Part shown: piece after piece, positions 3,534 through 55,527 of the stretch
How the letters are laid out: the number at the start of each line of letters is the position of its first letter
Position numbering within the stretch: position 1 is the stretch's first letter
Assembly (NCBI RefSeq): GCF_020745735.1
Contig: NC_083404.1
Span: forward strand, 59,085,731 to 59,149,730
DNA length: 64,000 nucleotides
Direction of reading: 5' to 3'
Source of the DNA: Hemiscyllium ocellatum
Taxonomy: Eukaryota
Program-made: the position numbers and the translations under genes
The notes under the pieces: model-generated
What the model was told of the DNA's origin: nothing
Databases searched by the model: none
Seen by the model: the letters and a program-made list of their open reading frames with translations, nothing else

Positions 3534-3540
3534 TCTCTGT

Positions 3541-3727
3541 AGCCGAGAGTGTGATGCTGGAAAAGCACAGTAGGTCTGGCAGCATCCGAGGAGCAGGAGG
3601 ATTTCTGATGAAGGGCTTATGCCCGAAACATCGATTCTCCTGCTCCTCAGATGTTGCCAGATCTGTTATGCTTTTCCAGCATCACATTCTTGGCTCTGAT
3701 CTCCAGCATCTGCAGTCCTCACTTTCT
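3541..3727 (+). mobile_element. Short fold-back Penelope-related element with minimal hammerhead motif
   Basis: Inverted arms; CTGATGA-A-GGGC-TTAT-GCCC-GAAA-CA-TC at 3605-3632; shares the family 3' end CTCCAGCATCTGCAGTCCTCACTTTCT. Confidence 0.7.
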
Positions 3728-5494
3728 ACTACAGCATCTGTACCCCGGAACATTCAGCTGCCAGTCATTTCCATCCATCAGCCATTTTTTTTTGTAATAG
3801 CAAAGATATCCAGGTATCATATACCCATTTATGCCCTGAGTTTATTGCCTTACCTGTCAGGCCCCTTGCATTGAAGTAAATGCAGTTTAATTCATCAGGT
3901 GCTCTTGCCTGTCTTGCCTATTTAACTTGCTCTCTTTAACTTGTGTACAAGTCTCAACCTTCCCTCTTGCCGCACTACTGCTTAGGTTCTCTCCCTGTCA
4001 GACTAGTTTTAACACTCCTATGTAACTCAAGTAAAATTTCACTGCCAGGATATTCGTCCCCCTCCAGTCCAGGTGCAACCCTTCCCCTTGTACAGGTCAA
4101 CTTCTGCTCCAGAAGAAATCTCAATGATCCAAAAATCTAAATTTCTGCCCCTGCATCAGCTCTTCAGCCACACATTCATCCACCCTATCCTTCATGCTTA
4201 TTCAAAAGCTCATGGCTCCAGGTGTGATTCAGAGATTATTACTCTTAAGCCCCTGCATTTTAACCTCCTGCATACTTCCCTATATTCCCTCTGCAGGACG
4301 TCATTCCTCTTCCTACTTCTGTCACTGGTACCAATTTGGACAATGACCACTGACTGCTCAAGCCCCTCCATTTCCAAAAGCATCATTGCACAGCTCAAAT
4401 AACATACAACTGTTGATTGTTAAGTTGCAAACTCTTGTTTTTTTTAATCAATTACAGGAATCCAATTTCAATTTGTTTGTAATTCCAATAAGGAAAATAT
4501 GATCTCTTACAACTCCCATCCCTTCCTGCTGATTCTCTTCTTTCATCCAACCCGATTTCCCCTTCCCTCCCACTCCAAAGAATAAATAGGTAGTTGTTTT
4601 TGACCTTTCCACACTCAGTGGCCTGAATGACTTTCTTCTGTGCTATAGACTTATATGTCTCATTCATCCCCTCCCCTTACACTGCCCTCATCTCTCCATC
4701 CAACACTCCCAGCCTATTTCCCAAACTCTGAGGATAGTCAAGTATATTCAGGACTGAAATTGATAGATTTTCAGTTAGGCAATTAAGGGTTATGGGGATG
4801 TAGCAGTAAAGTGGAGCTGAAATCTAATAGAATGGTGGAGCAAACTTGAAAGGCTGAATGACTGACTTATGGTCTAATCACCTCAGTCCCAGATTAGTAC
4901 AGGTCTTCTTCAGGGTAATGTCTGAGGCCCAACCATCAACTATTCAATTACAGATTTTCCTCCATCATAAGAATGAAATGGGAGGTCAGCTGACAATTAG
5001 TGTATCGGTGTTAATCTGCAACTCCTCAAAAAATGAAACATTCTACTCCCCTATTTAGTGGAGATGAATGATATTCAAGTTTGAGTGATAAGCACCACTT
5101 GTGTCAGAAAGGGAAATTACCATCTCCAATGCGAGACTCTCACTATATGCAAAGGTAATATTGATTGGTTGATTTAATGTTGTCACATGTACCAAGATAC
5201 AGTGAAAAGTGTTGTTTTGCATGCTATACAAAGAGATTGTACCATATGAAGTGCATCAGGTCAACAGAACAGAGTACAGAGAGAAGATGCAGAGACAGGT
5301 AGAGAGAGAGATCAGAATTAACATTTGAGAGGTCTATTCAAAAGTCTGGTAACAACAGTGAAGTCGTTCTTAAATCTATGTATATTCAAAGTTCTATATT
5401 TTCTGCCTGATGGAAGAGGGTGGAAGAGAATATAACTGGGGTAGGAGGGGATCTTTAATTATGTTGGTAGCTTTTTCAAGGCAGTGGGAAGGAC

Positions 5495-15090: not shown

Positions 15091-15151
15091 CTCCACAAAT
15101 ATACACCATGGGTTGTTGCTTTGGAGGCTGCAAGTCCTTCTGGATATCCAT
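15091..15151 (-). CDS. POLR2K: POLR2K first coding exon (61 coding nt; [20 protein letters not shown])
   Basis: ATG at 15151 and donor G|gtaatg at 15090; near-identical to the vertebrate RPABC4 N-terminus; 61+93+23 = 177 nt = 58 aa + stop. Confidence 0.97.
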
Positions 15152-15890
15152 TTCTATGCAATTTTCAATTTGGACTGAAAGACAATCAAATGTGAATTAT
15201 TACACAGTCATTAAGTTGTCTTAGAGAGTTTTTACTTGGTTTTTCTAATATCATTTGTCACAGACTAGTCTGATGTTAAAATCCTAGCTTTGACATTTGT
15301 CAGCAAATCCATTAAATTAAAAGATAAAATATATGTTTGGTAAACCTGACATGCAATTCTATTTCCAATCTCGTGGCAAAAGTTTAATATATTACTTTGC
15401 ATTGCCAAACTTCAAAAATATAGTTCCTTTAGACAGCGATCAACAACTGCAGATACCCATTTGTCTGGATAACAACAAGAACATTTGAGAATCTTGATGC
15501 TACAATGTACGAAGCAACCCACTTGATTGGCATTGTACCTACAATCTTAAATATTAATTCCCTCTATCATAAGTACACCCCACATGATACTAACAAACAA
15601 GGCAACAGAATGTAGCACAATGGATTGTTCATTGGCTTCAAGGTAAAACAGCAAATAGGAGTAGATGGTAATTATCAAGAATGGCAAGAAATTAAAAGTG
15701 ATTTTCCAAAAAGATCAATGCTAAAAACACTGCTTTTCACAATGTACATTATGATTTGGACTTAGTAATCAAAGAGAGTAGTTCATATCATGGGCTTTAA
15801 AAAAACACAGGGGAGGACATTAAAATTATGCACAATAGGAAAAAATTGGCAGAAGACAATAGCTGAGAGGGTGCATTTTAATAGAAACAA

Positions 15891-16399
15891 TGCCACCAGT
15901 TTCTGTATCCTCATAACAGTTGAAGCAAACACTCAGACAGAGCATGGCTCTACCTTTTTTACCTTTATTCTGAGCCATGGAAAGAGAAATGATCGCGCAT
16001 GTACACATAAATATGAGTTCTTGTTCTTGTCTTAAACAGCAGATTCTTAAAGAATTATATAGTCACCTAAGAGGGGCAGCATCCAAATAAGGCAACATCA
16101 AAATTGACTGGGTGACCATTACAATCAGCGAGCATCAACAGTAAAGATTAAGCCATTTTGCATTACACAATGGATATTCCTCACCTTGATAACTGACATT
16201 ATACAATGGATATTCTTTACCTCATTACCTAACATTACTTAATGGATGCTCTTTACCTTGTTAAACCACCACCCTTGCGACTAGCACCTCATTGTTTACT
16301 GCAAGTTCTTATCTTGTCAAAGTCATGCTAGCTGAGCCTTTGTCAAGCAACCCTAAATTTAACTCTTTCCTACCTGCTCATACCTTATACACTTTCTCA
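15891..16399 (-). repeat. 3' LTR of the RBPMS2-carrying element
   Basis: TGAGAAAG...GGTGGCA on - strand; TATATAA box (~16055), AATAAA (15964-15969), three 36-bp U3 repeats at 16161/16197/16233. Confidence 0.85.
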
Positions 16400-16734
16400 T
16401 ACCCTCCTTTTATCATTTCATGATAACCACCTAGATGGCACTACCAGCTTACTGCCAGTACTTAAGTTATTAACACACAATTTGCAATGATAACAACAAC
16501 AAAAATTACTAGTCCATGCAGTAGATAGAATCTGCAGAATCCTCCCAAGTGGAAAAAGGTTCACCAGTAAAATTCTTAAATCCAGTCATTAGTGACCACT
16601 CCACCCCATCCAAGTCAAGTGGAAATGAGTCAGTTATCCAAAATCTACTTCAGTAAAGTTCAACCTGAAAACAAAATCCAGTCTATCCTACTGCATCACT
16701 CCACGGAGAATTCTGAATTTTTGGGTAAGAGCAG

Positions 16735-17028
16735 TTAAATACTTAGAGACTTCAATCTTGGAGATGTTTCAGAAGTAGGATACCAGCGCATCTGAGCATG
16801 AAGTACAGCAGCAGGCTAGGTGAAGGCAGCATTCTTTGGTGCTTCTGCTCACACTCTGCTGTCAAATGTAACAAAGCCAACTGGATGTTTTGATGTTAAC
16901 TTGATCAGTGAACCTCCGTATCCCATAAATGATCGAAAGAGAAGATGGTAAAGCTCACATGGTTTAATGTCCATAGGAAGGCCACTGACAAAAAGCCTCC
17001 CGACTTCCTCTTCACTTTTTGTGCTCAT
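16735..17028 (-). pseudogene. RBPMS2: Processed, internally deleted RBPMS2 (Hermes)/RBPMS-family retrocopy
   Basis: Translates [85 protein letters not shown]; intronless; two in-frame stops; FVTFDSR favours RBPMS2 over RBPMS, but paralog assignment needs a tree. Confidence 0.85.
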
Positions 17029-17406
17029 GACTGAGGAGCTGATTGAATCCGTTGGGTCAGGTTGTGGAGGGGAGGGTGGTGGTTCGAATGTGAATGGAGA
17101 AACTCTAGAGATGATGTTAGCTGCTGAAAGTATCTTAACATTTCCTCTTTTCTTACTCTGTATGTCTGGGGACTCGAACCCGTTTGTCAGTGCATTTACG
17201 AAGCAGTGTCTCTCGACTGAACAAATTATTGTTCGAGGAATCCATTGAAAGCGACTGATCATTTCCGATACACAGGAATATCAAGAGGGATCAAGATTTA
17301 AATATCACTTATGGGTCCATTAATCTCCAGATACCAATATTCCAGGTGATCGCTGACATTGTCCAATCGTAACTATTCGCTTGGACTCCTACCCAGCTCA
17401 CCATAG

Positions 17407-17877
17407 TGTCACCCCATTTCTGTATCCACATATCAGTCGAAGCAAACACTCAGACACAGTATGGCTCTACCTTCTTTACCTTTATTCCGAGCCATGTAAA
17501 GAGAGCGATTGCCCATGTACACAAAGACATGAGTTCTTGATCTTCTCTCTCAAACTGCAGATTCTTAAGGAATTATATAGTCACTTACACTCACTTCCAA
17601 ATAAGGCAACATCAAAATTGATTGGGTGACCTTTATGATCAGCAAGCATCAACATCAAAGTTTAAGCCATCTGGCATTACACAATGGATGTTCCTCACCT
17701 TGTTAATTGGCATTACACAATGGAGGTTCTTTACCTCGTTAAACCACTACCTTGTGTCCAGCACCTCACTGTTTACTCCAAGTTCTTATCTGGTCAAATT
17801 CATGCTTGCTGAGCATTTGTCATGCAACCTTAAACTTAATTATTTCCCTACTTGCTCATACCTTCTACACTTTCTCA
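17407..17877 (-). repeat. 5' LTR of the RBPMS2-carrying element
   Basis: TGAGAAAG...GGTGACA on - strand; CCAAT, TATATAA and AATAAA; two 36-bp repeats at 17675/17711. Confidence 0.85.
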
Positions 17878-17879
17878 GA

Positions 17880-19150
17880 ATAAGCAAGTCAGTTATCTGG
17901 AAGGTGCAGGTCTCAGTAGGATACAAATTCAGAAATCATTACAAGTTCAGCTACAGATTACAGGTCACAAATAAAGCAAATTAAGCACCAGGCTTTACTT
18001 CTAGAGGGATAGAACTTGAAAAGCAGGGATGTTACGCAAAATCTGAATTGAAACTTAGTCATAGCATTGTGTGCAGTCTGGTCACCATATCATAAATAGG
18101 AATTGGATAGAGTGCAGAAAAATTAAGAGTATATATAAGAAAGAATCAAGAGGCTGGATTTTTCTCCTTTGAAAAAAATGCTTATAGTGGCCAATATAAA
18201 CATTTAAAATTATTACTTTTTCTTAAAATAGAGTGGACACATTTCTTTTCGTCGAGAGAATGGCCATTTATAAGATAATTACCATGAAATGCAACAAATT
18301 TCAGAAAGCTGGCGAGAATGCAGAAATTCCTACCACAGGGTGTGACTGAAGCAAATAGTACAGATATAATTAAGGGGAAGCCAGGCAAGATAGGAGGGAG
18401 AAACAGACTTAGCGTTAAACTTGTATAAGAAAAGATCCATTTCAGTTGGACAAGTGCAACAACTTCTGGACTCCAGAATCTACCTGAAGAATTGGAGACA
18501 AGTGCAGAAACATTTCATGAGAATGTACAGATGTTCCTCATTCCTGAACCAGAGATATACTGCAGGACATTGGACTATGTGACTTGGAGAGGAGATTCGA
18601 CAGAGGTATTCAAAATCATGAGGTGTTTGGAGAGAAATAAGAAGATACTGGTTCCCTAGTGTAAGGATCAAGAAAGACAATTTTAAAATAACGGTCAAAA
18701 TATACAATAGCACCCCGAGGAAAAACATTTCCACATCATAATTAATTAGGGTTTAAAAATATAGTGGAGACAGGCTCAATTGAGGAGAAAGTGAGGACTG
18801 CAGATACTGGAGATTAGAGCTGAAAATGTGTTGCTGGAAAAGCACAGCAGGTCAGGCAGCGTCCAAAGAGCAGGAGAATCGACGTTTCAGGCATGACCTC
18901 TTCTTCAGGAAAGGCTCATGCCCGAAACGTCGATTCTCCTGCTCTTTGGATGCTGCCTGACCTGCTGCGCTTTTCCAGCAACACATTTTCAGCACAGGCT
19001 CAATTGAGACATTCAAAAGGGAATTAGACTTATTTGATAGGAAAATTATAGACAGTTACAGGGAAAAGGCTGAGGAAAGGTAGCATAAGGTGAATTGCTC
19101 ATTTGGAGAGCCACTGTGCATACAATGAGCTGAATGGCCTCCATCTGCAT
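17880..19150 (+). mobile_element. Old CR1 3' fragments (host of the LTR element; continues from ~15600-15890)
   Basis: Decayed CR1 ORF2 C-terminal sequence on both sides of the LTR element. Confidence 0.6.
18785..18993 (-). mobile_element. Fold-back Penelope-related element with hammerhead motif and perfect 15-bp TSD
   Basis: TSD ACAGGCTCAATTGAG at 18770-18784 and 18994-19008; ~75-bp near-perfect inverted arms; CTGAAGA...GAAACGTC on - strand. Confidence 0.85.
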
Positions 19151-21049
19151 AGCGACAGATTAAGACAAGGCAAAAGTGAAACATAAACCAAAGCAAATAT
19201 GTCAAAACAGGGTATGTCTGTGCCATATGCAAACAATTTAAAGATGCACTACAGACTCTGGTCAAGTTCCTTCAACAGTATATTCCAAACCTGCAATTTC
19301 TTCCCACATTTGACAACAGCAGATGTACAGGAAATTCAAACTCCCACTCCCAAGACCCAGGCATGACTCTTAATGAAGACTTTGCAACTGTGCTCATTAA
19401 AGAGGCTGACAATGTAGTCATGTGAAAGAAATATTACATAGGATAAACACACATATATATATCTAATTTAGCAAAATATAGTATTAAGAGGCTTATCTTA
19501 GAAGTTGATAAATTGCCAGGGCCTGTCCAGGACAGAATATAATATACTTTAGCAGAAACTAAGCAAGGAAAGTGAAGCTGTGTCATTTTCCAATCCTCTG
19601 GTCACAGGTTTCAGCCAGTCAAATCATTGTTTAAAATTAGAGGAAGAATATTACAAGTTCTTTACAGGTCAAAAAAAAGTCTATCCAATGAAAAACAAAT
19701 TACGAGAAAAAAATTCAGACAATACAAATCATTTAGAAGGATGCAAATTAAGCAACAATAGTCAGCATGGATTGAAAGGTAGGTCATGTGAGAATGTGCA
19801 AATGTGAGAATGTGTTGTTTTACAAGTAACACAAGGACAGTCAATAAAGATAACTCATATGGAACACAATTAAGCCCTTACAGAGGATACAAAAATTAGT
19901 CATAGTTCCTAGTGAGGAAGGAATCTGAATGAGAACAATCAATGCAGTTGTTAGCCAAATAAGGCACAGAAGTACACAAAAACCTGTTAGGACATATTAA
20001 TGTCGAGGAAGAGGAATGTTGGATACAAGTCCACAGATCCTGGAAGGTAATAGTGATAGTTAAGGTGATCAGGGAGATGAGCTGAAAATGTGTTGCTGGA
20101 TGTACAAGATATAGTCTACACCCAACTAATAAAATTAAGAGCAGGGAGATAATGAGAGAACTAAACAGAACACTAGTTAGATACAAACTGATTACAGTTC
20201 TGGGCATCATATTGCAAGAAAATCATATAAGATACTCAGACAGGACCTTTCAAAACCATGACCACTTCCATCTAGAAGGACAAGGTCAGCAGATACATGG
20301 GAAACCTGCAAGTTTCTCTCCATCCCAGTCACCGTCCTGATTTGGAAGTATATTGCCATTTTTTTCATTGTCAGAGTCAAAGTCCTTGAAGTGTCTCACT
20401 AATGGCATTGTCAGTGTTATCTACAATAAGTGGATTGCATGTTCAAGACAACAGCTCGCCATGACCTTCTCAATGGCAACTAGGGATGGGCAATAAATGC
20501 TGGCCCAGCCAGCGACACCCATGTAACACGAGTAAATTAAAACAAAGGACAGCGCAGATTGACATGAGTGTTAACAATCATACTGAATTCAAAACATGAA
20601 CGAATGGTGAATAGCATTCTATTCCACTCTCGATTCTACCGCTCCACTCCCTAAATCTTGTACAGAATAGGCAGGAGAGATTTGTGGGTAGTTAAAGAAG
20701 TGGTGTAAGCATGAGAAAGTGTGATTTTTTTTAAACAAGCGATACATCCAGCTAATTTTCAACTAGACATGACGGGCTGAATGGCACCTAACAGTGCCTC
20801 TGCTGTAGTTCCCTAGAACCAGTAGCCAAACAATACGATATAACTCAAAACAGAAGCCACAATTACCCTTTCATCGATAGGCCTCATATGGTTTCCAACA
20901 ACTCGCATTTCACACTAAGCCAGAGGCCCTGACTGTTACCAAGAACCTGTCTCCCTATCCCTCTTTCCTCCCCTAAAGATTTTTTTTAACAATATGAAGC
21001 CAAATGCTCCGAGATTATTTACGGGATCGATCTGTTTCTCTTCCTTCAT

Positions 21050-21900
21050 TCCCTCCCTTCTACTCACCCTAACTACACCTACCATCTCCGACTGAACCGT
21101 ATGGAAAAAGGAACCTTGGCAGCAAAAAATGCTCACGCCGCTGGCCCAACTACTTCCGGTTGCCGTGAACAGTAATACGGCCGCTGATTGGTCACCCGGA
21201 GTAACCAATCAGAGTTTTGGATACGAAATTCGAACGGCGGAGCGGATTGTCAGCGGCGGCACTGGATTATGAGGAAGGTTGGAGGGGGGTTGGGGATGTG
21301 ACCGGTGAGAGAAGAAACTTCGGGAAAGGAGGTGGTCTGAGACGGAAATGTAGGTGCCGTTTAACTGGAAGGCCCTTTCTCGGTTCTCGGTGGATTAAAA
21401 GTTTCTCCTGTAGCAGTTGTGTAAGTACGAGGTTGTGGTTTAGAGACCAGTCCAGCCCCCAGTTTCTGTTCCATTGGACTCCTTACTGGGCCTCGCGGCG
21501 TTTCCACAAACTCGAAAGAGCTTTGAGTCCGTCCTCGCTTCAGCAAGGTGTATGTTTGCGTGCTCGAAGGAATACTTTCCTGCAACTCTTAGGGTTTGGA
21601 GGCAGTGGGCTGAGGACGTTCGTATATGGGATATTTTGAGGGAGAGTGGGAATGTATCGAAGAGCGGGGATCCACATGTGGGAGCAGATGATGAACGAGG
21701 GGGAGCGCCAACCTGGGGGAGAGGAGGGCCAGATGGAGCTGTGTCGGGGAGCGGGAGGAGGGGATGGAGCTTTGTGTGTGGGGGGAGGAGGAGGAGGAGA
21801 TGGAGATGGAGATGTTTGAAACCACGAGTTTGCACCAAAACTAGTAAGCATCCTGCAACAAGAGACTCTGCACTGTACGTGATGCAAGCAAACATTTTTG
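21050..21900. promoter_or_regulatory. POLR2K: CpG island and POLR2K promoter with non-coding exon 1 (donor at 21135-21136 on - strand); possibly bidirectional
   Basis: Sharp CpG enrichment; ETS/GABP CCGGAAGT (21152-21159, - strand); inverted CCAAT pair 21184-21212; GC|gtgagc donor. Confidence 0.75.
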
Positions 21901-23601
21901 GGTTTTGGGGCACGTTCACATAGGAATATTCAATTTGACCTGACCAAATATAGAAAGAACTACATGCACATTCAGACTCTAACACCATAATTACTACTAA
22001 TCATTTTGTCAAATGCTGAATTATGGCTTTGTGAATTGTTTGTTTTGGTACAGATGGTGCGAATTACAAAGAGCAGCGTTGGTAATAGCTTAGAATAAAT
22101 ATTTACAGTAATGTATTTTAATTGAATAACAAAATACTTAAAGGATTCAGACCGATTGTTTCTTTCCCAAACCCCTCTAAACATCAACATTTTAATCCCA
22201 TTGTACGTTGCTTGACTTCATTTCAACATGTTCCAGTGAATCATTTGTTTGTAATCATATTTTCTTATTTGAATAATTCTGATCATAGTTTCAATCCTTT
22301 GCATTTGGATCTCAAAAGTAAATTTCCTTTTGACTGTCATTTGATGTATGCTGATATGAGGCTGGATGCTTGAAGGGATCTTTTGCACAGGTCCATTATA
22401 ATGATCTCTGACTTTAAGTTTTATATATGTCTTTTTCCAGAAAAAAAGTCAGTGTACTTATGTATCCATAAACAGCACTTTTGATTCAATGCAATTTCAC
22501 TAGATGCCAAAGAGATCTGCAGTTCAAGATGTTGGATTATATGTTTCACTGGTTTCACTATATGATCCTGACTATTGTACATGTGTGTTTTGGCAAGTGT
22601 GTGAAAGTGAAATATTTGTAGGGGTGTCAGTGCCTATTAACCATATCCCAGCAAGCCTCTACCAAATTTAGAAAAGAAGAATGCTGAAACATTGTAGGTA
22701 CCAGCTAGAAACTTTGATTGTGTATACAGTTATATGTAAGGAAAAGTTGAGGAGTTAGCATTTTTTGTTCAAACTACTGAACCCTATTAAAATCAAATGT
22801 TTGTCTACATATTTATTTTGACTTGAGCACCTTTAAATAAAGCATGATTTTACTGCCTGCTAAATTTAATCTTTTTGTAGAGTATTCCAAAGCAGCTCCA
22901 TTGGAGGCCTCAAAGATGTGTGTCTAAACCAGCTGTAGGCTTGGTCCAAAGATGCTCTACTGGGATATAATAGTGTAGGTTGAGGGGAATGCAAATTCAG
23001 GAATGTGTTCCTGGGGTTAAGTGCAGATTTGCAGTATCTTTTATTTTCTGCAGCTTTATTACAAGGCAGTTAGCAAAAATGTTTCCCTGGGATACGTGAG
23101 CATTTTTCTCACTTGTTTGAGCAGTTTATTTTCAAGAGGGACATTTACAAAATTCCAGTGGTGAAAGTTACAGCATGTGTTAAAATCAGAAAATACTTTG
23201 AAAAAAAGATATTTTTAATCTTAGGGGTTTTTGATATTCATAATGTATTTACATGGAAATCTACTGATTCACTAATTGTATGTTGATAATTCATTTTTTA
23301 AACTAAATATAATGGGATATTGCGATTCAAGCACATTTTTCATACCCAAATACCAGAATTGGAGGATAGCTATGAATATTTTCTCCAAATGAGAATAGAT
23401 ATAACTGCAGATGCTGGCAATCAGAAACAAAACCACAAATCGCTGGAAAAGCACAGCAGGTCTGGTAGCATCTGGAGAGAAATCAAATATTAACAATTTG
23501 TACAAAGGAATTAAATGCAATATCTCTGAATTTGCAGATGATAAACTGGATGGTGTGTGCTGTGAAGAGAATGCTAAGAGTCTTGAGGATGACTTGGATA
23601 G

Positions 23602-23730
23602 GAGGAGAAAGTGAGGTCTGCAGGTGCTGGAGATCAGAGCTGAAAATGTGTTGCTGGAAAAGCGCAGCAGGTCAGGCAGCATCCAAGGAACAGGAGATTC
23701 GACGTTTCAGGCATAAGCCCTTCTTCAGGA
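23602..23730 (-). mobile_element. 5'-truncated copy of the hammerhead-bearing short element
   Basis: TSD ATGACTTGGATAG / ATGGCTTGGATAG (23589-23601, 23731-23743); intact core ATTC-CTGAAGA-A-GGGC-TTAT-GCCT-GAAA-CG-TC-GAAT. Confidence 0.8.
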
Positions 23731-24029
23731 ATGGCTTGGATAGACTGACTAAGTGAGCAAATACTTGGCAAATGCAATATAATGTGACAACATATAAGGT
23801 TGTGCACTTTGGTCACAAAAACACTAGGGAAATTATTATCTGAATGACAGTTTTGTAAAAGGTGAGGTGCAACGAGACCTGGGTGTCATGGTGGAATAGT
23901 CACCAAAGACTGGCTTGCAGGTGCAGCAGGCAGTGACGAAACATCCTGGTTTCCGTAGCGAGAGTCTTTGAGTATCTGAGTAAAGATGTCTTGCTGCAAT
24001 TGTACAGCTCCTTGTTGAAGCCACGTAGA

Positions 24030-40947: not shown

Positions 40948-42450
40948 GACTGGATGTTGTGTTGTCCTTTGTGCTAAGATGTTGCGATTACTGAAGCATT
41001 CTTGTGATTTGGCAATTGGCTCTGAGCAACAAGTGACTCATACTGGAAGTTTTAAATCTGGGTGTCGATTGTTCGAACAGGACAGTAACTATGATGAAAT
41101 AGAAAGCACAACTCCCTCAGTTAATTACTCCAGTGGAACTGTAGAAGAGCTTGAATCACTTTTGGCCAACATGTCTCCTGTAGTGTGCAATGAAAATCGA
41201 TTGTCTGCTAGTAGGTCATCATCCTTTTCAGTTGAAAGAAAATGGTATGATCAGAAAAGAACTGATTTAACTTTACCAGCTCAGTTTGAAACCCCTAGGA
41301 GAACTTATAAAACAATTGCATTACGGCGGCGACTTCTTGAGTCGCACCTGTCCTCAAGTGGAAGCGTAGAATTATGTGGAACTCTTAGCCAATCGAATGA
41401 AGCCAGTGTGATGGAATTGTCTTGCACCAGAAAAGGTTATAAAGACTCTTTTTGTTCAGATAGTTCACTGGACTCACCTGAGGACTTTAACTCTCAAGCT
41501 TTGGCAACAAGCACTTTAAACAGCGTAGAAAGTGGCATTTCATGTAGAACTAAAAGATATTTATTTGCACAGCAGCGTACCTCTACAATAGATGACTTGC
41601 AGGATAAAAATGAGTTAGTACCTGCTGAATATATAACCCTTGAGCAATCCACTATAAGTAGTAAGCTTGATTTGAGCAGTTTCTCTTTCCCTGAAGACTA
41701 TGATGAATGCACTTCAACTGAGCCTTTCACATCACCATCAAACCATGGGCAATCTGAAATACATAAAGACAACCAGTTCCTTACTCCAGTGAACAGCTTT
41801 GTAATGAACCTCAGTATAAACTCAGCAGAGAGGGCATTGTCCAGAACTGCATCAGATGGCAAATTAAATATCTCAGCAACTGAGGACAGTGGCTACAATT
41901 CTATTGGCTTTGAAAAATCTGATTCCTTTTCAAACCATGAATGCTCCCTCCAAGAGTTGGTGCAAAACCAAAAAAGAACACCCAGGATGCTAGATTGCAA
42001 AAATTCCCAAAGAAGCTTCGAAAGAACCAAACGGTTATCCACTCTTCGTGAGCGAGGTTCCCAGTCAGAGGCAGATGATGAAGATAGAGCAGCTTTTCTA
42101 CTGAGATCGGACTGCAACTTAGAATCTTGCATTAAAGAAAATGAATCAGTGTTTGAGGAAGAAATTTGTGAGGAACCTCTAAAATTGAAGGATTTCTCTT
42201 GCACTCCTGCTTTAAAGTTAGTACAGGAAATGTGCATGAGAAAAAGAAAAAGACTTAGAGATGCCGCTGTGCATGATCCCCATCAGTCAGAGGAAAAGAC
42301 ATCGAGTGAATCTATGCCATCACTGTGTAGACTCATTGGCAGAAAAATGGGTTTGGATAAAGTGGATATCCTAAAAGAACTATTGAGCAGAAATCTGACC
42401 CATGTTCTTGCTACAATTTTGTACCACTTAACCATACATGATCTCGGCAG
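40948..42450 (+). CDS. FBXO43: FBXO43 (Emi2/XErp1) large coding exon; in-frame ATG at 40979
   Basis: Acceptor ctcatag|G; motifs LATSTL, QQRTSTIDD (CaMKII/Plk1 docking), DSGYNS degron, RLSTLRERGSQS (Rsk/PP2A region), start of F-box LIGRKMGLDKVDILKEL; donor AG|gtaaga. Confidence 0.95.
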
Positions 42451-43067
42451 GTAAGATGTATTCCATTCCAGAAAACCAGTTGGTGTCAGTTAGAACTGAA
42501 GAACATTTTTACACTTTAAAAGCCTTTTATTTACATTTGTACATTTCAGTTAAAAATTAACAATATGCAGTGTTCTCTAATTCTTTCACTATATATTTCT
42601 AACTGGTTATGCAACAGTCTTTTATATTATCCTCCAAAAAAATTATGAACGCTGATGTGTAGTAAACTTACTGTTGTATGACTTCTGCAAATTGTTGTAC
42701 TCTTGGAATAATAGGGATTCTTTTTGTGCCTCTTCTCAATAACTTCACCATCTATACTAGTAAGGTTAAAATTTTCTGTTTCATAGGCTGTAACTGCATT
42801 TTGATATTTTTGCTCTCTCATGCTCTCTCTCTCTCCCCGCTCCAAACAAATCATACTTCAACTTAATTTTCATTTGTTCATGGGATGTGAATGTCAGCAG
42901 AAAGCTTTATTGCTCTTGAGATGCTAAAATCTGGGCTGAAATTAACTAGACTGCCTATCTCCTATCTGAGAAGCACTGAATATTTGCTTTAAATGTCATT
43001 TGCCCATACTGTGTTTTGCTTGACACCATTTTGTTTTGCAAATGAAATGCTTGTATATTCATGCCAG

Positions 43068-43170
43068 AATAAGAATGGTGAGCAAAATCTGGAAGAAAAT
43101 TGTCAAGCAAGATCAGACATCATATCTTAGAGGGAAGGACTATTTGGACGAAATTCGAATTCAAAGAATG
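43068..43170 (+). CDS. FBXO43: FBXO43 coding exon (103 nt; end of F-box, IRMVSKIWKKIVKQD...)
   Basis: gccag|A ... ATG|gtatgt; phases match neighbouring exons. Confidence 0.92.
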
Positions 43171-47145: not shown

Positions 47146-48098
47146 AAGTCACATTTCCTGTTTAGCTTCATATCATCTGTAAATTTGGAAATATTACATT
47201 TGGTATCCATGTCCAAAGTCATTGCATATTATGAACAGCTGGGGCCCAATTTCTGATCCTTACAGACCCCACTAGTTACATTTCCTCAATGTGAGGATGA
47301 CCCATTTACCCGTTTTCTGTCTTAGAAGAGGTTGAGAAGAAGTAGTGGAATTTTACTGGGATGGTATCATATTCTGAGATAGCTTTAGTTATTTGGGGAA
47401 GCTTGGGTTGCAACCCTTGGAGTCTGGAAGAATGAGGAGATTTAATGGGCATTAACAGTAAGGTTTTTGATAGAGTATGTAAGGAGAAACTTTGTTTCCA
47501 GTGGCAACTCTAACCAGAGAACCATCATGAGAAGATTGGCTAAAGAGCAAAGGACATTGTGCGGTATGTTTACAGTGAGTTTTTTGGCTCTGGACTGTGT
47601 TGCCTGAAAGGAACTCAAAGAAATTAAATAACATAAGAGTGAATAAGTAATTGGAAGGGGATGTAAAAATTAAAATTGTATGGGAAATAGCAAAGGAGTT
47701 GGATTAATTGGATATCTGTACCAGACAGCTGGAATAAACACATGAACAGATAACCTATGCAATATCATTCTACAATGTTTGTGAATGTCAGCTGAATGTT
47801 TGTTTCTTTTAGAAAGATTAGATCAGTCCCAGTTGACAAAGTACAATGTAAAACTGACTTAATTGGGATCAGGGTTTTTTTTTTGCAAGAGTTGTGGTTT
47901 GACTTTTTCCACTCTTGCAATTCCAGCTGTCCAATTATTCAACAGATCCTGGTGAAATTTTATATGGAAGTGCAAATTACACCAAATCTAGAAATGTCCT
48001 GAAGGGTTTCATTTAACAATAAGGAACTTGCATGATTTGAGAGAGCCATTTTATCACCAACAAGTTGGGATACAAATCTGAATGCCTTTGTTCAACAG

Positions 48099-48284
48099 CA
48101 TAGTGTTCCTCAGGCTGCAGATGCTGAAACCAGATGTAATCTTCCATGTCGTTCTGCTTTGAGATCTGTTCAGGCCCAAGCAAAAACTGCCTTTACTCCA
48201 ACTCTGTCCTCTCGTCAAGAAATCACCCCTGGTGGATGCAGCATTGTTTCAAAGTCAACAAGCAAACATGAGGAGTTTTTAAAG
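48099..48284 (+). CDS. FBXO43: FBXO43 coding exon (186 nt; D-box RSALRSVQ, Cdk TP sites)
   Basis: caacag|CAT ... AAG|gttagt; HSVPQAADAETRCNLPCRSALRSVQAQAKTAFTPTLSSRQEITPGG...KHEEFLK. Confidence 0.93.
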
Positions 48285-48536
48285 GTTAGTTGAAATAAAT
48301 ATCTTGGTACCTTCTGTAAGTTATCAATCTCCAGACAAGATTGTAAAAATTCAGTTTTCAAGCAAGTAGAATTGTAATATCATGTGTATTGGTACTGTCA
48401 GCTGCACACTCTCAGCATTGGTAGGGCAGTTGCTTTGAAGCACCTATAATTAGGAATCATAAGATGGAAAATAAATCCAAACATTTGCTGGTGATGCAAG
48501 TTTTTATTTCCAGTAAGGTGCTGATCTCTTTGCAGG

Positions 48537-48602
48537 AGAAAGTGAGGGCTGCAGATGCTGGAGATCAGAGCTGAAAATGTGTTGCTGGAAAAGCGCAGCA
48601 GT
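48537..48602 (-). mobile_element. Very short 5'-truncated copy of the fold-back/hammerhead element family
   Basis: 12-bp TSD TCTCTTTGCAGG at 48525-48536 and 48603-48614; same 3' end as the 18785 and 23602 copies. Confidence 0.8.
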
Positions 48603-49049
48603 TCTCTTTGCAGGTCTATTATATAAATTGCAATATATTTTTTCTTTCAAAAGAATTTTTTGAGAATTTTAATTTTTTTGGAATCCATTCTTGATATTTG
48701 GCATTTCTTTCAATTTGCAGTTACAAACCCATGAATTCAGAGTAGACGTAGGACATTTGGTCCTTTGCCTTCTCTGTCAATCAGTAAGATCAAGGATGGT
48801 TCTTTTGTGCTTCAAACTCTACATTCTCATCTACCTTCAATTTCCTTTGTCTATAAGGAATCTAAGGTTATCCATCTAATTCCATCTTTTAAAAAAAAAT
48901 GCAGATCCCACCTGCATTGCCTTCTGAGGCTTTGTTCCAAAGTGTCTCAACTGAGAAATAAAGAAATCTCATCTACCTTAAAACAGTGACTCCTAATTAT
49001 AAAACAGTGCCCTCTAATTCTGGTCTCAGCTACAAAAGTAAGCATCTTT

Positions 49050-52000: not shown

Positions 52001-54791
52001 TTATTGTTAACAAATACTGATTCCCACTTCTTTGCGGTAGGGGACCTACACAATCACTTAAGACTCTTGTAAAAGATTTCTCAAATGCTGGAATAGATAT
52101 TAAAGATGCAGGTTTTATTACCGCCTGTGGTTTTCCAATTACTTGACATGGTGGGGTATGACATGTCTGGCAAAATTCAACTACATCCTTGTGCAGTCCA
52201 GAGCAGTAAAAATGTCTGTGTTTTAGCCTGTGTTTTCCTCACCTCTAAATGACCTCCATGTTAGCTCATGCGCCATCGCAACACCTCTTTTCTATACCCC
52301 ACTGGCAATATGATTTGATGAATTTCTGTCCATTCTCATCTCCCTGAATATGTGATGGTCTCCATTTCCTCACAGACATAATTTTTCAGGTAATAATGTT
52401 TAGGGATATATTTGGATTTCTTCTCTGTAATTATCTTTTGATACAACTGCTTTTAAGTTTACATCTTTCTGCTGTAACTCAAATATTTTAGCTGATCTAA
52501 AGATGTCTGCATTGTCATTTATTTGCTTCTGTTTTGAAGTGGCTAATGTCACTTCAGCTGTCTTATCTGTACTCTTTGATCTCTCCTATTTCAACTGGTG
52601 GCTTTGTGACCTCGTTACCACACAGTCAGGAAAAATTCCAGGATGTATGTCCTACATTTTCAGTTGCCTGAATTTCCACTGGCTTTTCAACCATAGCAGG
52701 CAGCAGTCCTTTCGGTAAACCAGCTATATCATTAGCGAAGACAAATTGTATTCCTGGAGCTGAGAGTTTGTCCACTACCACAAATTCTCCACTCTTTTCT
52801 GCTCACTCTAACCTCACTTTACAGAATTTAAACACTTTTTATCTCACTGTGAATTCCTGTTATCAGTACCTTTGCTGGCAATAGTCCTTCAGAAGTACAT
52901 ATCTCCTCATGTCCTCATCTTTCAGCATCGCAGACTGAGAGGATCAGGTGTCTCTTAATATTGTAACCTCTTTACCTGCCACTCCTCTAAGGGAATAAAC
53001 TTCACCTTTGCAGGTAGCAGATCTGGCACTTCCTCCTTAACCAACCTCTGATCAGCTTGTACATTCTGGTGCAGCTTTCTAGGCTCTAATGGGTTTTATG
53101 TAACCACTCTAACTAAACGCCCAGGCTTGTCCTGTTTTCCTACATCTGGCTTTCCAGTGCTTCTCCTAGCCCACCAACACTGATTTCATGTGGTCTACTT
53201 TGTTACAATGAAAACACCAGAGCTATTTAAATTCTTTGTCCCCTTCAAGGGTTTCCTTTTTAAGCCGTGATAAGTTATCCTTATGATCTTCACCAAGATC
53301 TAACTTTCCCTTTCCACGTGAGGATTTCTCTTTTGCCCCCATTTCTATCCCTCATAGACTGAATTTGATTCTGGAAGCCAAACAGTGTGAGGCAGTCCAT
53401 AAAACAATCATCAGCCACTTCAGCTGCTAACTTTGCAGTTTTAACATTCTGCTCTTCCACATGAGTTTGCACTACATCAGGAAGTAAACTTTTGAATTTC
53501 TCCAAAATAATTGTCTCTCTAAGAGCGACGTAGGTTTGCTCTGTTTTTAATGCTCTTATCCACCTATTAAAATCACTCTGTTTGATCCTTTCAATCTCAA
53601 TATAGATTTGAACAGAGTCCCACCTTAGATTTCTGAAACATTCTCTTAGGCTTCTCGTACAAGCTCATATGCACATTAAGATGGCTTTCTTCACCTCCAC
53701 AGACTCTCCAGATACTCCCTCTGGTACTGATGCAAATGCCTCACTAGCTCTGCCTACAGGTTTGTTTGGATCAACAAAACCCACATAGTCACTGGCCACT
53801 GCATTTGTTTAGCCACTTTTTCAAATGAAGTGAAAAAGCCTGCTACAGCCTTCTCATAAAAGTTAGGCAATGCTTGAACATAAACAGTTTCTCACCAGGC
53901 TTTTTGATTACCAGGGGCTCATCCCCACTCTCTTCCTTACTAGACATTTCTTCAGCATTCATCTCCATCCTTTTTAAACTGACTTTCCTTTCTAAGTGTC
54001 ATTTTCAGGAGTTCAAACTCTCTCTTGTTCTTTCTCTTCTGCTAATGCCCATCGTTCTTTTTCTTTCTCTTCTGCTTTTAATTGTAACTCTAACTGTTTC
54101 ATGTCTGCTGCCCTTTCCTTTTCTCTCACCTCCAACTCAACTGTTTCATTTGCAATTAAATTTTAACCATCTCTACAGATCCAGGTGGTATTTCCAGCAA
54201 ATTTAAATGCTGAGCCATTGCTGTAATCAACTCTACTTTCTTCACAGAATGATGTAGCTTCACCTCCAATTTGTCTGCTAATTCCCACAGCTTGACCTTG
54301 ACTATCTTGTGTAAAAACCCATGGTTATATCTTCTACCTCCAGAAAACTCTTGGTGACTGAAAGAGTCATTGCTATCCCAAGTTCAGTTTACCCAACCAA
54401 ATCAACTTCCAGAATGAAGACGCTAACACCTACCACTCACTGGCCTCCAGTCCAAACAATTTGAATCCCAAATCCCAATTTAGAAATACAGACTAGCCCC
54501 CAATCTGTTATGGACCAGGTCCGAACCCTCTGTTTTTAAGCAGGTATACCAGACCCTAACTTTGCAAGTTGATTTACCCACATGTACGACGGATTTTTCC
54601 AGCAAGAATTAGCTGGTCAGTCTAATGATTTTTAAGACTTGAAAGCCTTCTGTTGGACTTATTATCTGTTCGTATAAATAAAAGGGCCCCTATAAACTAT
54701 CTAAACTCAGTCTAGTTGAACCTGGCCAATTACTCCCTCTTGGGGGTACTCAAGGGTACATAAACCTTGAGAAAGGACCAGCTTTGTCACA
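49050..54791 (-). mobile_element. Gmr1-type Ty3/Gypsy LTR retrotransposon, full-length but decayed, inside FBXO43 intron 4 and inserted in a CR1 fragment
   Basis: LTRs 54506-54791 (5') and 49050-49633 (3'); PBS TGGGGGCTAGTC (tRNA-Pro-like) 54485-54502; PPT AAAGGGGGAGG ~49634-49644; order on - strand is gag (ATG ~54370), protease, integrase (DCVGPLP / IQSDQ / PESQG), RT (YIDDLVIF), RNase H (AINASDKDVGAVILQ). Confidence 0.88.
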
Positions 54792-55278
54792 CGTTTCCAC
54801 CTCTATCTTAAGACTTATACTTGCTATCTTTTAGCTCTAGTGGAAATCAGTCCAGGCTGTCGGGCTTATCATATGACAACTGATTAATTCCAGATATCAA
54901 TCTAGTAAACCTCCTCTGAACTGTTATTAAACACCATTGCATTTTTCCTTAAATAAAGACACGAAAGATGCACCCTACATAATGAGGCTTAAAATCTTTC
55001 TTTTATGTTCAACTCGTCTTGTGATAAAGGATTGCTGTTACTGCCTTAATTATCCGAGTTAATGGAAAGAAAAAATCCATTGTTTGTATTGTTCTAGTTG
55101 TTAGCTTCCTGCTGGAAGTGATAGTATTGTGCTGGATGTATATGCTTTCTGATAATTCTTCGAAGCAGCATGGTAAACTATTTCTGCTCTGAAATTGTAT
55201 CTTAAGAAAAGGAGTTCATTTTTGATGAGGACTAATTGTAAGAGATGATGTGACCTAAATATTTACTTTTACCACCAG

Positions 55279-55527
55279 GTTGCACAAACTCTCTTTAATG
55301 ATGAAGCTCTAAAACCATGCCCACGATGTCAATCGCCAGCTCGGTACAATCCAATGAAGAAACGAGGCCTCTGCAGTCGAGAAGGGTGCGCATTTGACTT
55401 CTGCACTCAGTGTTTTTGTGGTTTCCATGGTTCTAAAGAATGTGTCAGCAGGTCTACAAAACGTTTAGTCAATAAAGGAGGACCACCAGGAAGTGCTCAA
55501 AGCAAGCGGAATTTGAAGAGATTGTAA
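55279..55527 (+). CDS. FBXO43: FBXO43 last coding exon (249 nt; ZBR zinc-binding region and RL tail)
   Basis: caccag|GTT; [55 protein letters not shown]...[13 protein letters not shown]. Confidence 0.97.

Follow-up and report, generated by a model that had tools for sequence, protein, structure and literature searches.

A candidate non-autonomous LTR element of bamboo sharks with a probably dead RBPMS2 fragment as cargo

The locus and the LTR element

The window (the whole 64-kb stretch of DNA that was analysed) contains the exons of FBXO43 on the plus strand and a putative POLR2K gene on the minus strand (Table 1). The first coding exon of the putative POLR2K has its ATG at 15151, and the zinc-ribbon exon occupies 11510-11418. 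A putative exon 1 is placed near 21.1 kb by a CpG island and a splice donor only. This CpG island (20750-22000) lies between POLR2K and FBXO43, and is consistent with a promoter shared by the two genes in head-to-head orientation. An element with a copy of RBPMS2 is situated upstream of the POLR2K coding exon, that is, in the putative first intron of this housekeeping gene. It is oriented in the sense direction and has AATAAA in both LTRs; it should be transcribed as part of the POLR2K pre-mRNA, and could cause early polyadenylation.

Two other repeats were observed in the window. The region 18783-18993 contains a near-perfect 175-bp inverted repeat, in which a short repeat family that is also found at 3537-3730, 23602-23736 and 48531-48605 occurs twice, back to back. 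The sub-threshold microRNA matches at this site reflect the hairpin only. An open reading frame encoding a SCAN domain (53290-53664, minus strand, Pfam E-value 2e-9) is located in an intron of FBXO43 and is possibly a remnant of a Gmr1-like LTR element.

The RBPMS2 copy sits within a 2-kb element (15891-17877) flanked by two LTRs in the same orientation. The 5' and 3' LTRs differ at 60 of the 464 aligned sites (p 0.129, K2P 0.143). The number of 36-bp tandem units is also different, with about three copies at 16161-16258 in the 3' LTR and two copies at 17672-17742 in the 5' LTR. The best candidate target-site duplication at the element flanks matches at four of six bases, and the insertion is old. 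No other copy of the LTR was found in the 64-kb window. The candidate primer-binding site may resemble the 3' end of a tRNA-Arg, and the 64-kb window has no tRNA gene for comparison.

The 1007-bp interior was read in all six frames and contains no retroelement ORF, and there is no poly(A) tail on the RBPMS2 insert anywhere in the interior. A search of Pfam produced no match for the long interior frame or for the leader frame, and Rfam no match inside the element. The leader lies upstream of the RBPMS2 start codon and includes 84 stop-free codons at 17029-17280 (minus strand), in frame with the RBPMS2 start and with an ATG at 17262 (shuffle P 0.008). Its last ~21 codons match N-terminal extensions of two proteins that are considered below, P0002 and P0249. 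Further upstream P0249 matches in a shifted frame. Given this shift and the lack of a Pfam match, the leader frame was rejected for now as a gag-like fusion.

Taken together, the anatomy most likely corresponds to an LTR-mediated retrocopy that was amplified as a non-autonomous element. Our preferred reading, with a probability of about 0.8, is that it belongs, as a single copy, to a small non-autonomous LTR family of bamboo sharks and has a dead fragment of RBPMS2 as cargo.

Table 1. Features of the element and of its host locus. Positions are those of the window.
Feature	Position	Strand	Details
Putative POLR2K intron 1	15170..21081	-	host context, same strand as the element
3' LTR	15891..16399	-	~509 bp, TG...CA ends, one extra 36-bp unit
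Polypurine tract	16402..16411	-	two bases ahead of the 3' LTR
3' internal region	16412..16734	-	without poly(A) run, without AATAAA
RBPMS2 C-terminal remnant	16735..16815	-	shortened poly-Ala, conserved motif, degraded last codons
Second stop	16816..16818	-	four codons past the junction; probable old break, shared or traceable in all four copies
Deletion junction	16827..16832	-	85 parental codons missing; ATGCT at 16832-16828
RBPMS2 start Met, shortened linker, partial RRM	16828..17028	-	beta1-alpha1-beta2-beta3-most of alpha2
Leader	17029..17385	-	between candidate primer site and RBPMS2 start Met
Probable primer-binding site	17386..17403	-	TGG start, three bases past the 5' LTR
5' LTR	17407..17877	-	471 bp, TG...CA ends, AATAAA near 3' end, two 36-bp tandem units
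FBXO43 exons	40949-42451, ~43030-43170, 48093-48290, ~55270-55524	+	

The RBPMS2 copy and its internal deletion

Translation of the minus strand of 16735-17028 yields 97 codons followed by a terminal stop, and the frame does not shift anywhere between the start methionine and the C-terminal motif. There are two internal stops, at codon 60 (16851-16849, within the partial RRM) and at codon 71 (the second stop of Table 1). With the stops written as X, residues 5-68 align to the RRM structures solved for RBPMS and RBPMS2 with E-values from 5e-24 to 1e-22, which is far above chance. Protein comparison assigns both the N-terminus and the tail to the elasmobranch RBPMS2 type. The RBPMS2 N-terminus, RNP2, RNP1 and the C-terminal motif of the parent gene, RBPMS2/Hermes (PDB 2m9k, 5det), are all recognisable. 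Compared to this parent, the end of alpha2 is missing together with the alpha2-beta4 loop and beta4, and so are the C-terminal loop that reads RNA and the proline-rich middle; the RRM of the copy stops at the equivalent of human RBPMS Ala80. The tail matches the parent P0008 at 15 of 24 residues. The poly-alanine run has three residues as against 7-8 in the parents, helix alpha1 contains a one-codon insertion, and near the end of the copy there is a net loss of three bases, with the final few codons unlike the conserved tail.

The first-pass annotation had described an unshifted frame that runs through a partial RRM into the C-terminal motif, an in-frame internal deletion, and a shortened N-terminal linker, and all three descriptions hold. 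The linker has lost six codons relative to the three other copies described below, a loss private to the window copy. As for the deletion, 85 codons are absent, in frame, in comparison with the parents from cartilaginous fishes. The span between the retained part of the RRM and the tail is 84-85 residues in five of the seven such parents and 120-121 residues in the other two, which are longer isoforms; in the window copy it is zero.

The positions of the breaks were compared with exon ends, which were taken to be the five points where annotated RBPMS2 protein isoforms diverge and thus come from proteins rather than from genomic DNA. The copy spans three of these five junctions with no introns, and so would be derived from a spliced mRNA. 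Its 5' break falls two codons before an exon end, and its 3' break is inside an exon. Neither coincides with a boundary defined in this way, which disfavours the possibility that a natural splice isoform of RBPMS2 without the middle was captured. Short annotated isoforms of teleosts that skip the middle do exist (P0004, P0005). However, they join two codons further on, straight into the last exon. Moreover, among the 98 named proteins with measurable spacing in the matches listed, the junction was seen only in P0002. Capture of a ready-made isoform is thus scarcely credible. The survey covered 119 named proteins, of which 21 were unmeasurable, and 120 of the 134 long matches were listed; six unnamed matches from read archives were excluded before the counts of spacing, of RRM variation and of differences between copies.

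A plausible cause of the deletion is microhomology at the ATGCT of the junction. In five of the seven parents, the codons of the two residues preceding the 3' break could share at most five bases with the 5' side, and by genetic-code reasoning only three of these positions are forced. In the present-day parent of C. plagiosum the residue at the 3' breakpoint differs from that of the five. A jump between similar codons would preserve the frame in the absence of selection.

Other copies, the second stop and decay of the frame

Three annotated proteins contain the same junction. The first, P0002, is a 132-aa "RBPMS2-like" protein of C. plagiosum and the best of five short matches. It also has a similar short poly-alanine run and the same ~21-codon leader as the window copy. 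The other two, P0249 and P0250, were the two best matches to P0002 among representatives at 50% identity, with 150 of the 721 matches listed. Four more representatives, P0259, P0298, P0311 and P0341, also match past the position of the junction and lie outside the copy comparison. All copies other than that of the window were seen as annotated proteins only, and LTRs were seen at the window copy alone. The deletion is not private to one copy, as it is present in 4/4 copies seen (the window copy, P0002, P0249, P0250), and it predates the insertion in the window.

Any two of the four copies have 12-19 differences at the 61 RRM sites. The FBXO43 exon near the element is 97% identical to that of Chiloscyllium punctatum and 81% identical to that of Stegostoma, which makes the host a bamboo shark or something very closely related. 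Set against the 97%, the divergence of the copies is too high for an orthologue within a genus, which implies at least two loci; this inference should be read with the reservation that FBXO43 is constrained, though its exon evolves fast. P0002 is best read as a paralogue of the window copy. One could also suppose that the copies are orthologues of a single old insertion, or segmental duplicates, and that the deletion was made by DNA repair after insertion. The age of the LTRs (K2P 0.14) agrees with this. However, the window is Chiloscyllium-like, yet its copy and that of C. plagiosum differ at 12/61 RRM sites, which is about the LTR-LTR distance, and P0250 is modelled beside an astacin gene, for which no match was found in the 64-kb window. 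A single insertion or segmental duplication is thus very unlikely.

The protein model of P0250 combines the RBPMS2 fragment with a complete astacin protease domain (Pfam E-value 3e-58; the astacin match is also found in Atlas). This is probably a chimera of the gene model or, less probably, a real exonised fusion.

The substitutions in the RRM are nested: one occurs in each of the four copies, another in three of them, and two further ones in P0002 and P0250 only. This suggests successive rounds of copying. A tree built on the 61 columns groups the four copies weakly: the branch that has them all on one side is supported at 63/76. Among the four, the window copy alone has lost six linker codons and has the stop at codon 60.

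The second stop is different. The affected codon is invariant in all 113 aligned parents. At this position the window copy stops and P0249 ends exactly (by a stop or by the end of the record). P0002 and P0250 each have a non-parental residue of their own; either residue is a single step away from a stop codon, and two steps separate it from the parent and likewise from the other residue. The simplest history, by parsimony over four copies only, is one old stop in the shared progenitor that was later lost twice. The C-terminal motif would then probably be untranslated while the copies spread, and so the fusion of the partial RRM with the C-terminal motif was probably not produced by the spreading element. 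The first-pass annotation regarded both internal stops as late decay. This is true of the first one, whereas the second is traceable in all four copies. The continuous frame expected of a selected transduced gene would likewise have been interrupted, on the same parsimony over four copies, by the break at codon 71 in the spreading element.

In the RRM part, 53 of 61 sites show an invariance of 95% or more in a set of 114 named proteins, and the parents from sharks, rays and chimaeras differ from P0008 at 0-3 of the 61. The four copies have 9, 6, 8 and 15 non-parental sites, of which 9/9, 5/6, 7/8 and 14/15, respectively, fall on the sites with at least 95% invariance; in total, 26/61 sites are changed in at least one copy. 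The window copy has seven private changes (absent from P0002) at the 61 sites, and 8.4 are expected (95% range 4-14) from random mutation over half of the LTR distance. Its private changes fit neutral decay, in a test made at the protein level rather than by dN/dS. No purifying selection on a product was detected at the protein level in the four copies.

Several observations count against dead cargo. P0002 has only four changes of its own in 61 sites relative to the window copy, a number close to the lower limit of what neutrality predicts. Three of the four copies have no stop ahead of the shared break, and the leader is open for 84 codons (P 0.008). The alignable coding part of the window copy contains frame-preserving indels only, whereas in the repeats of the window multiples of three make up just 13 of 66 indels. 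The losses in the linker, the poly-alanine run and the junction would be repeat-guided, and the net three-base loss near the end may represent two or more events. However, no repeat accounts for the one-codon insertion, and P0250 has another such insertion. The start methionine is kept in three of four copies, P0002 being without the parental one. The signals of open frames and in-frame indels are inflated, as the copies were found via good translation.

Possible products, proposed history and comparison with known systems

According to PMC4783296, CAC is read in RBPMS by Glu97-Met105 of beta4 and the C-terminal loop, the dimer is formed by Lys36, Arg38, Ile84, Arg85, Phe86 and Asp87, and R38Q alone shifts the protein towards the monomer. 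The deletion removes all of beta4, the CAC-reading C-terminal loop (Glu97-Met105) and half of the dimer interface. In 4/4 copies the Ile84-Asp87 loop is deleted, and Lys36 or Arg38 is changed. Zebrafish Rbpms2 is described in PMC6049948 as a Balbiani-body protein needed in oogenesis, and its localisation in germ granules as well as in the Balbiani body as requiring an intact RRM. In HEK293 cells the C-terminus is enough for granules (PMC6049948), and the last 20 residues of RBPMS drive oligomerisation (PMC10570038).

The first-pass annotation proposed a dominant-negative or granule-targeting mini-RBPMS2. In full, the active element would have encoded a factor of ~100 residues, composed of the partial RRM and the C-terminal motif, and both stops would be later. 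The in-frame junction common to four copies is in line with this proposal. In P0002 and P0250 the frame stays open to the end of the tail, and the last conserved residues survive in P0002; however, open copies are over-represented, as only annotated proteins were searched, and the tails match the parent at just 14-17 of 24 residues. The dimer and RNA-reading residues named in PMC4783296 (Ile84-Asp87, Glu97-Met105, Lys36/Arg38) are deleted or changed in every copy, and targeting both to germ granules and to the Balbiani body would fail for want of an intact RRM (PMC6049948). A fragment bearing the tail could in principle join RBPMS assemblies, since the drive for oligomerisation (PMC10570038) and for localisation to granules in somatic cells (PMC6049948) comes from the C-terminal 20 residues. 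This is the sole route left for the dominant-negative or granule idea, and it is blocked by the presumed old stop, which the fewest-step reading puts in the shared progenitor. Thus the mini-protein does not stand up well, and we regard it as quite unlikely. The predicted structure is uninformative and was not counted as evidence (pLDDT 42 for P0002, 36 for the intact parent with the same alignment).

One more possibility is that the element benefited from the captured piece, either in the form of RNA or through a short peptide that terminates at the shared stop; the piece might, for example, stabilise or localise the transcript in the oocyte, or decoy regulators of the RBPMS2 mRNA. The fragment and the leader were retained over several rounds of copying, as the nested shared changes suggest, although retention is what is expected of passengers of non-autonomous elements (PMC5131818). 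The start methionine, present in three copies of four, and the requirement for the Balbiani-body protein Rbpms2 in zebrafish oogenesis (PMC6049948) would fit such an aid. However, the peptide is an incomplete RRM, and the shared changes hit invariant sites. We consider aid by RNA or peptide, in either of the forms mentioned, to be unlikely. An equally low probability is given to the bolder conjecture that the shark LTR element kept the RBPMS2 fragment for germ-line transmission, through an RNA or peptide steering the transcript into oocyte granules, or that copies which lost the stop (P0002; P0250 with its astacin domain) became new genes using the oligomerising tail.

The preferred reading, dead cargo in a non-autonomous LTR family, can be expressed as a series of steps. 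Firstly, in the germ line, an LTR element and a spliced RBPMS2 mRNA would be packaged together, and template switching would copy the mRNA into the element in place of gag-pol-env; the resulting anatomy is that observed here. Secondly, at capture or in an early round of copying, the reverse transcriptase would skip 255 bases of the mRNA in a forward jump, probably from one codon to a similar one, keeping the frame without selection; the deletion itself is seen in each copy. Thirdly, the same progenitor would acquire the stop four codons past the junction, one RRM substitution and a shorter poly-alanine run, in an order that may have been different; these states are found in the present copies. 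Fourthly, a putative autonomous partner would mobilise the element in trans via its LTRs, primer site and purine tract, giving the at least two loci. Finally, each copy would decay neutrally, as seen for the window copy when compared with the LTR clock. A function of the mini-protein is not needed for this history.

Genes transduced by defective retroviruses of the v-onc type consist of host coding sequence in a defective LTR genome, are internally deleted, and need a helper. The shark element shares host coding sequence in a defective LTR genome, internal deletion and dependence on a helper. However, the v-onc-type products are translated and selected, whereas here the frame would have been broken early and invariant residues decay.

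LTR-mediated retrocopies, which include maize Bs1 and human HERV-K/FAM8A1 (Tan et al. 2016, PMC5131818), are a closer analogy. As in the cases described there, a partial intronless host mRNA replaces the internal ORFs between two LTRs. As in Bs1 and FAM8A1, there is no poly(A), and secondary copies have the same junctions. The shark element differs from those covered in PMC5131818 in the shark host, the germ-plasm RNA-binding cargo and the extra jump inside the mRNA; the species named in the text of that paper include no sharks. A vertebrate parallel, with several relics of one LTR family sharing the same host-gene insert, is ERV-Hako with SUSD6 or SPHKAP inserts (PMC11905727). However, ERV-Hako is described there as having 3' UTR pieces together with retroviral coding remnants, whereas the shark element has coding sequence and no retroelement ORF, and so could belong to either class, ERV or Gypsy. 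No publication on an RBPMS2-carrying element in sharks was found in the literature searched, in which subscription journals are thinly represented.

Under the preferred reading, LTR-mediated capture of genes followed by secondary amplification would now be seen in cartilaginous fishes too, and the cargo would be a germ-plasm regulator. The dated series of copies would show the order of events: capture, deletion, stop, spread, decay. The importance would be far greater if the cargo had aided germ-line transmission, but the present evidence points elsewhere. Both the 132-aa "RBPMS2-like" protein of C. plagiosum and the RRM-astacin fusion are probably copies of the element rather than paralogues of the host gene.

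A different kind of repeat is probably represented in another annotated protein of C. plagiosum, RBPMS2 isoform X9 (P0114). Its residues 174-221 match the antisense strand of several LINE-like repeats in the window, and thus this tail is probably repeat-derived.
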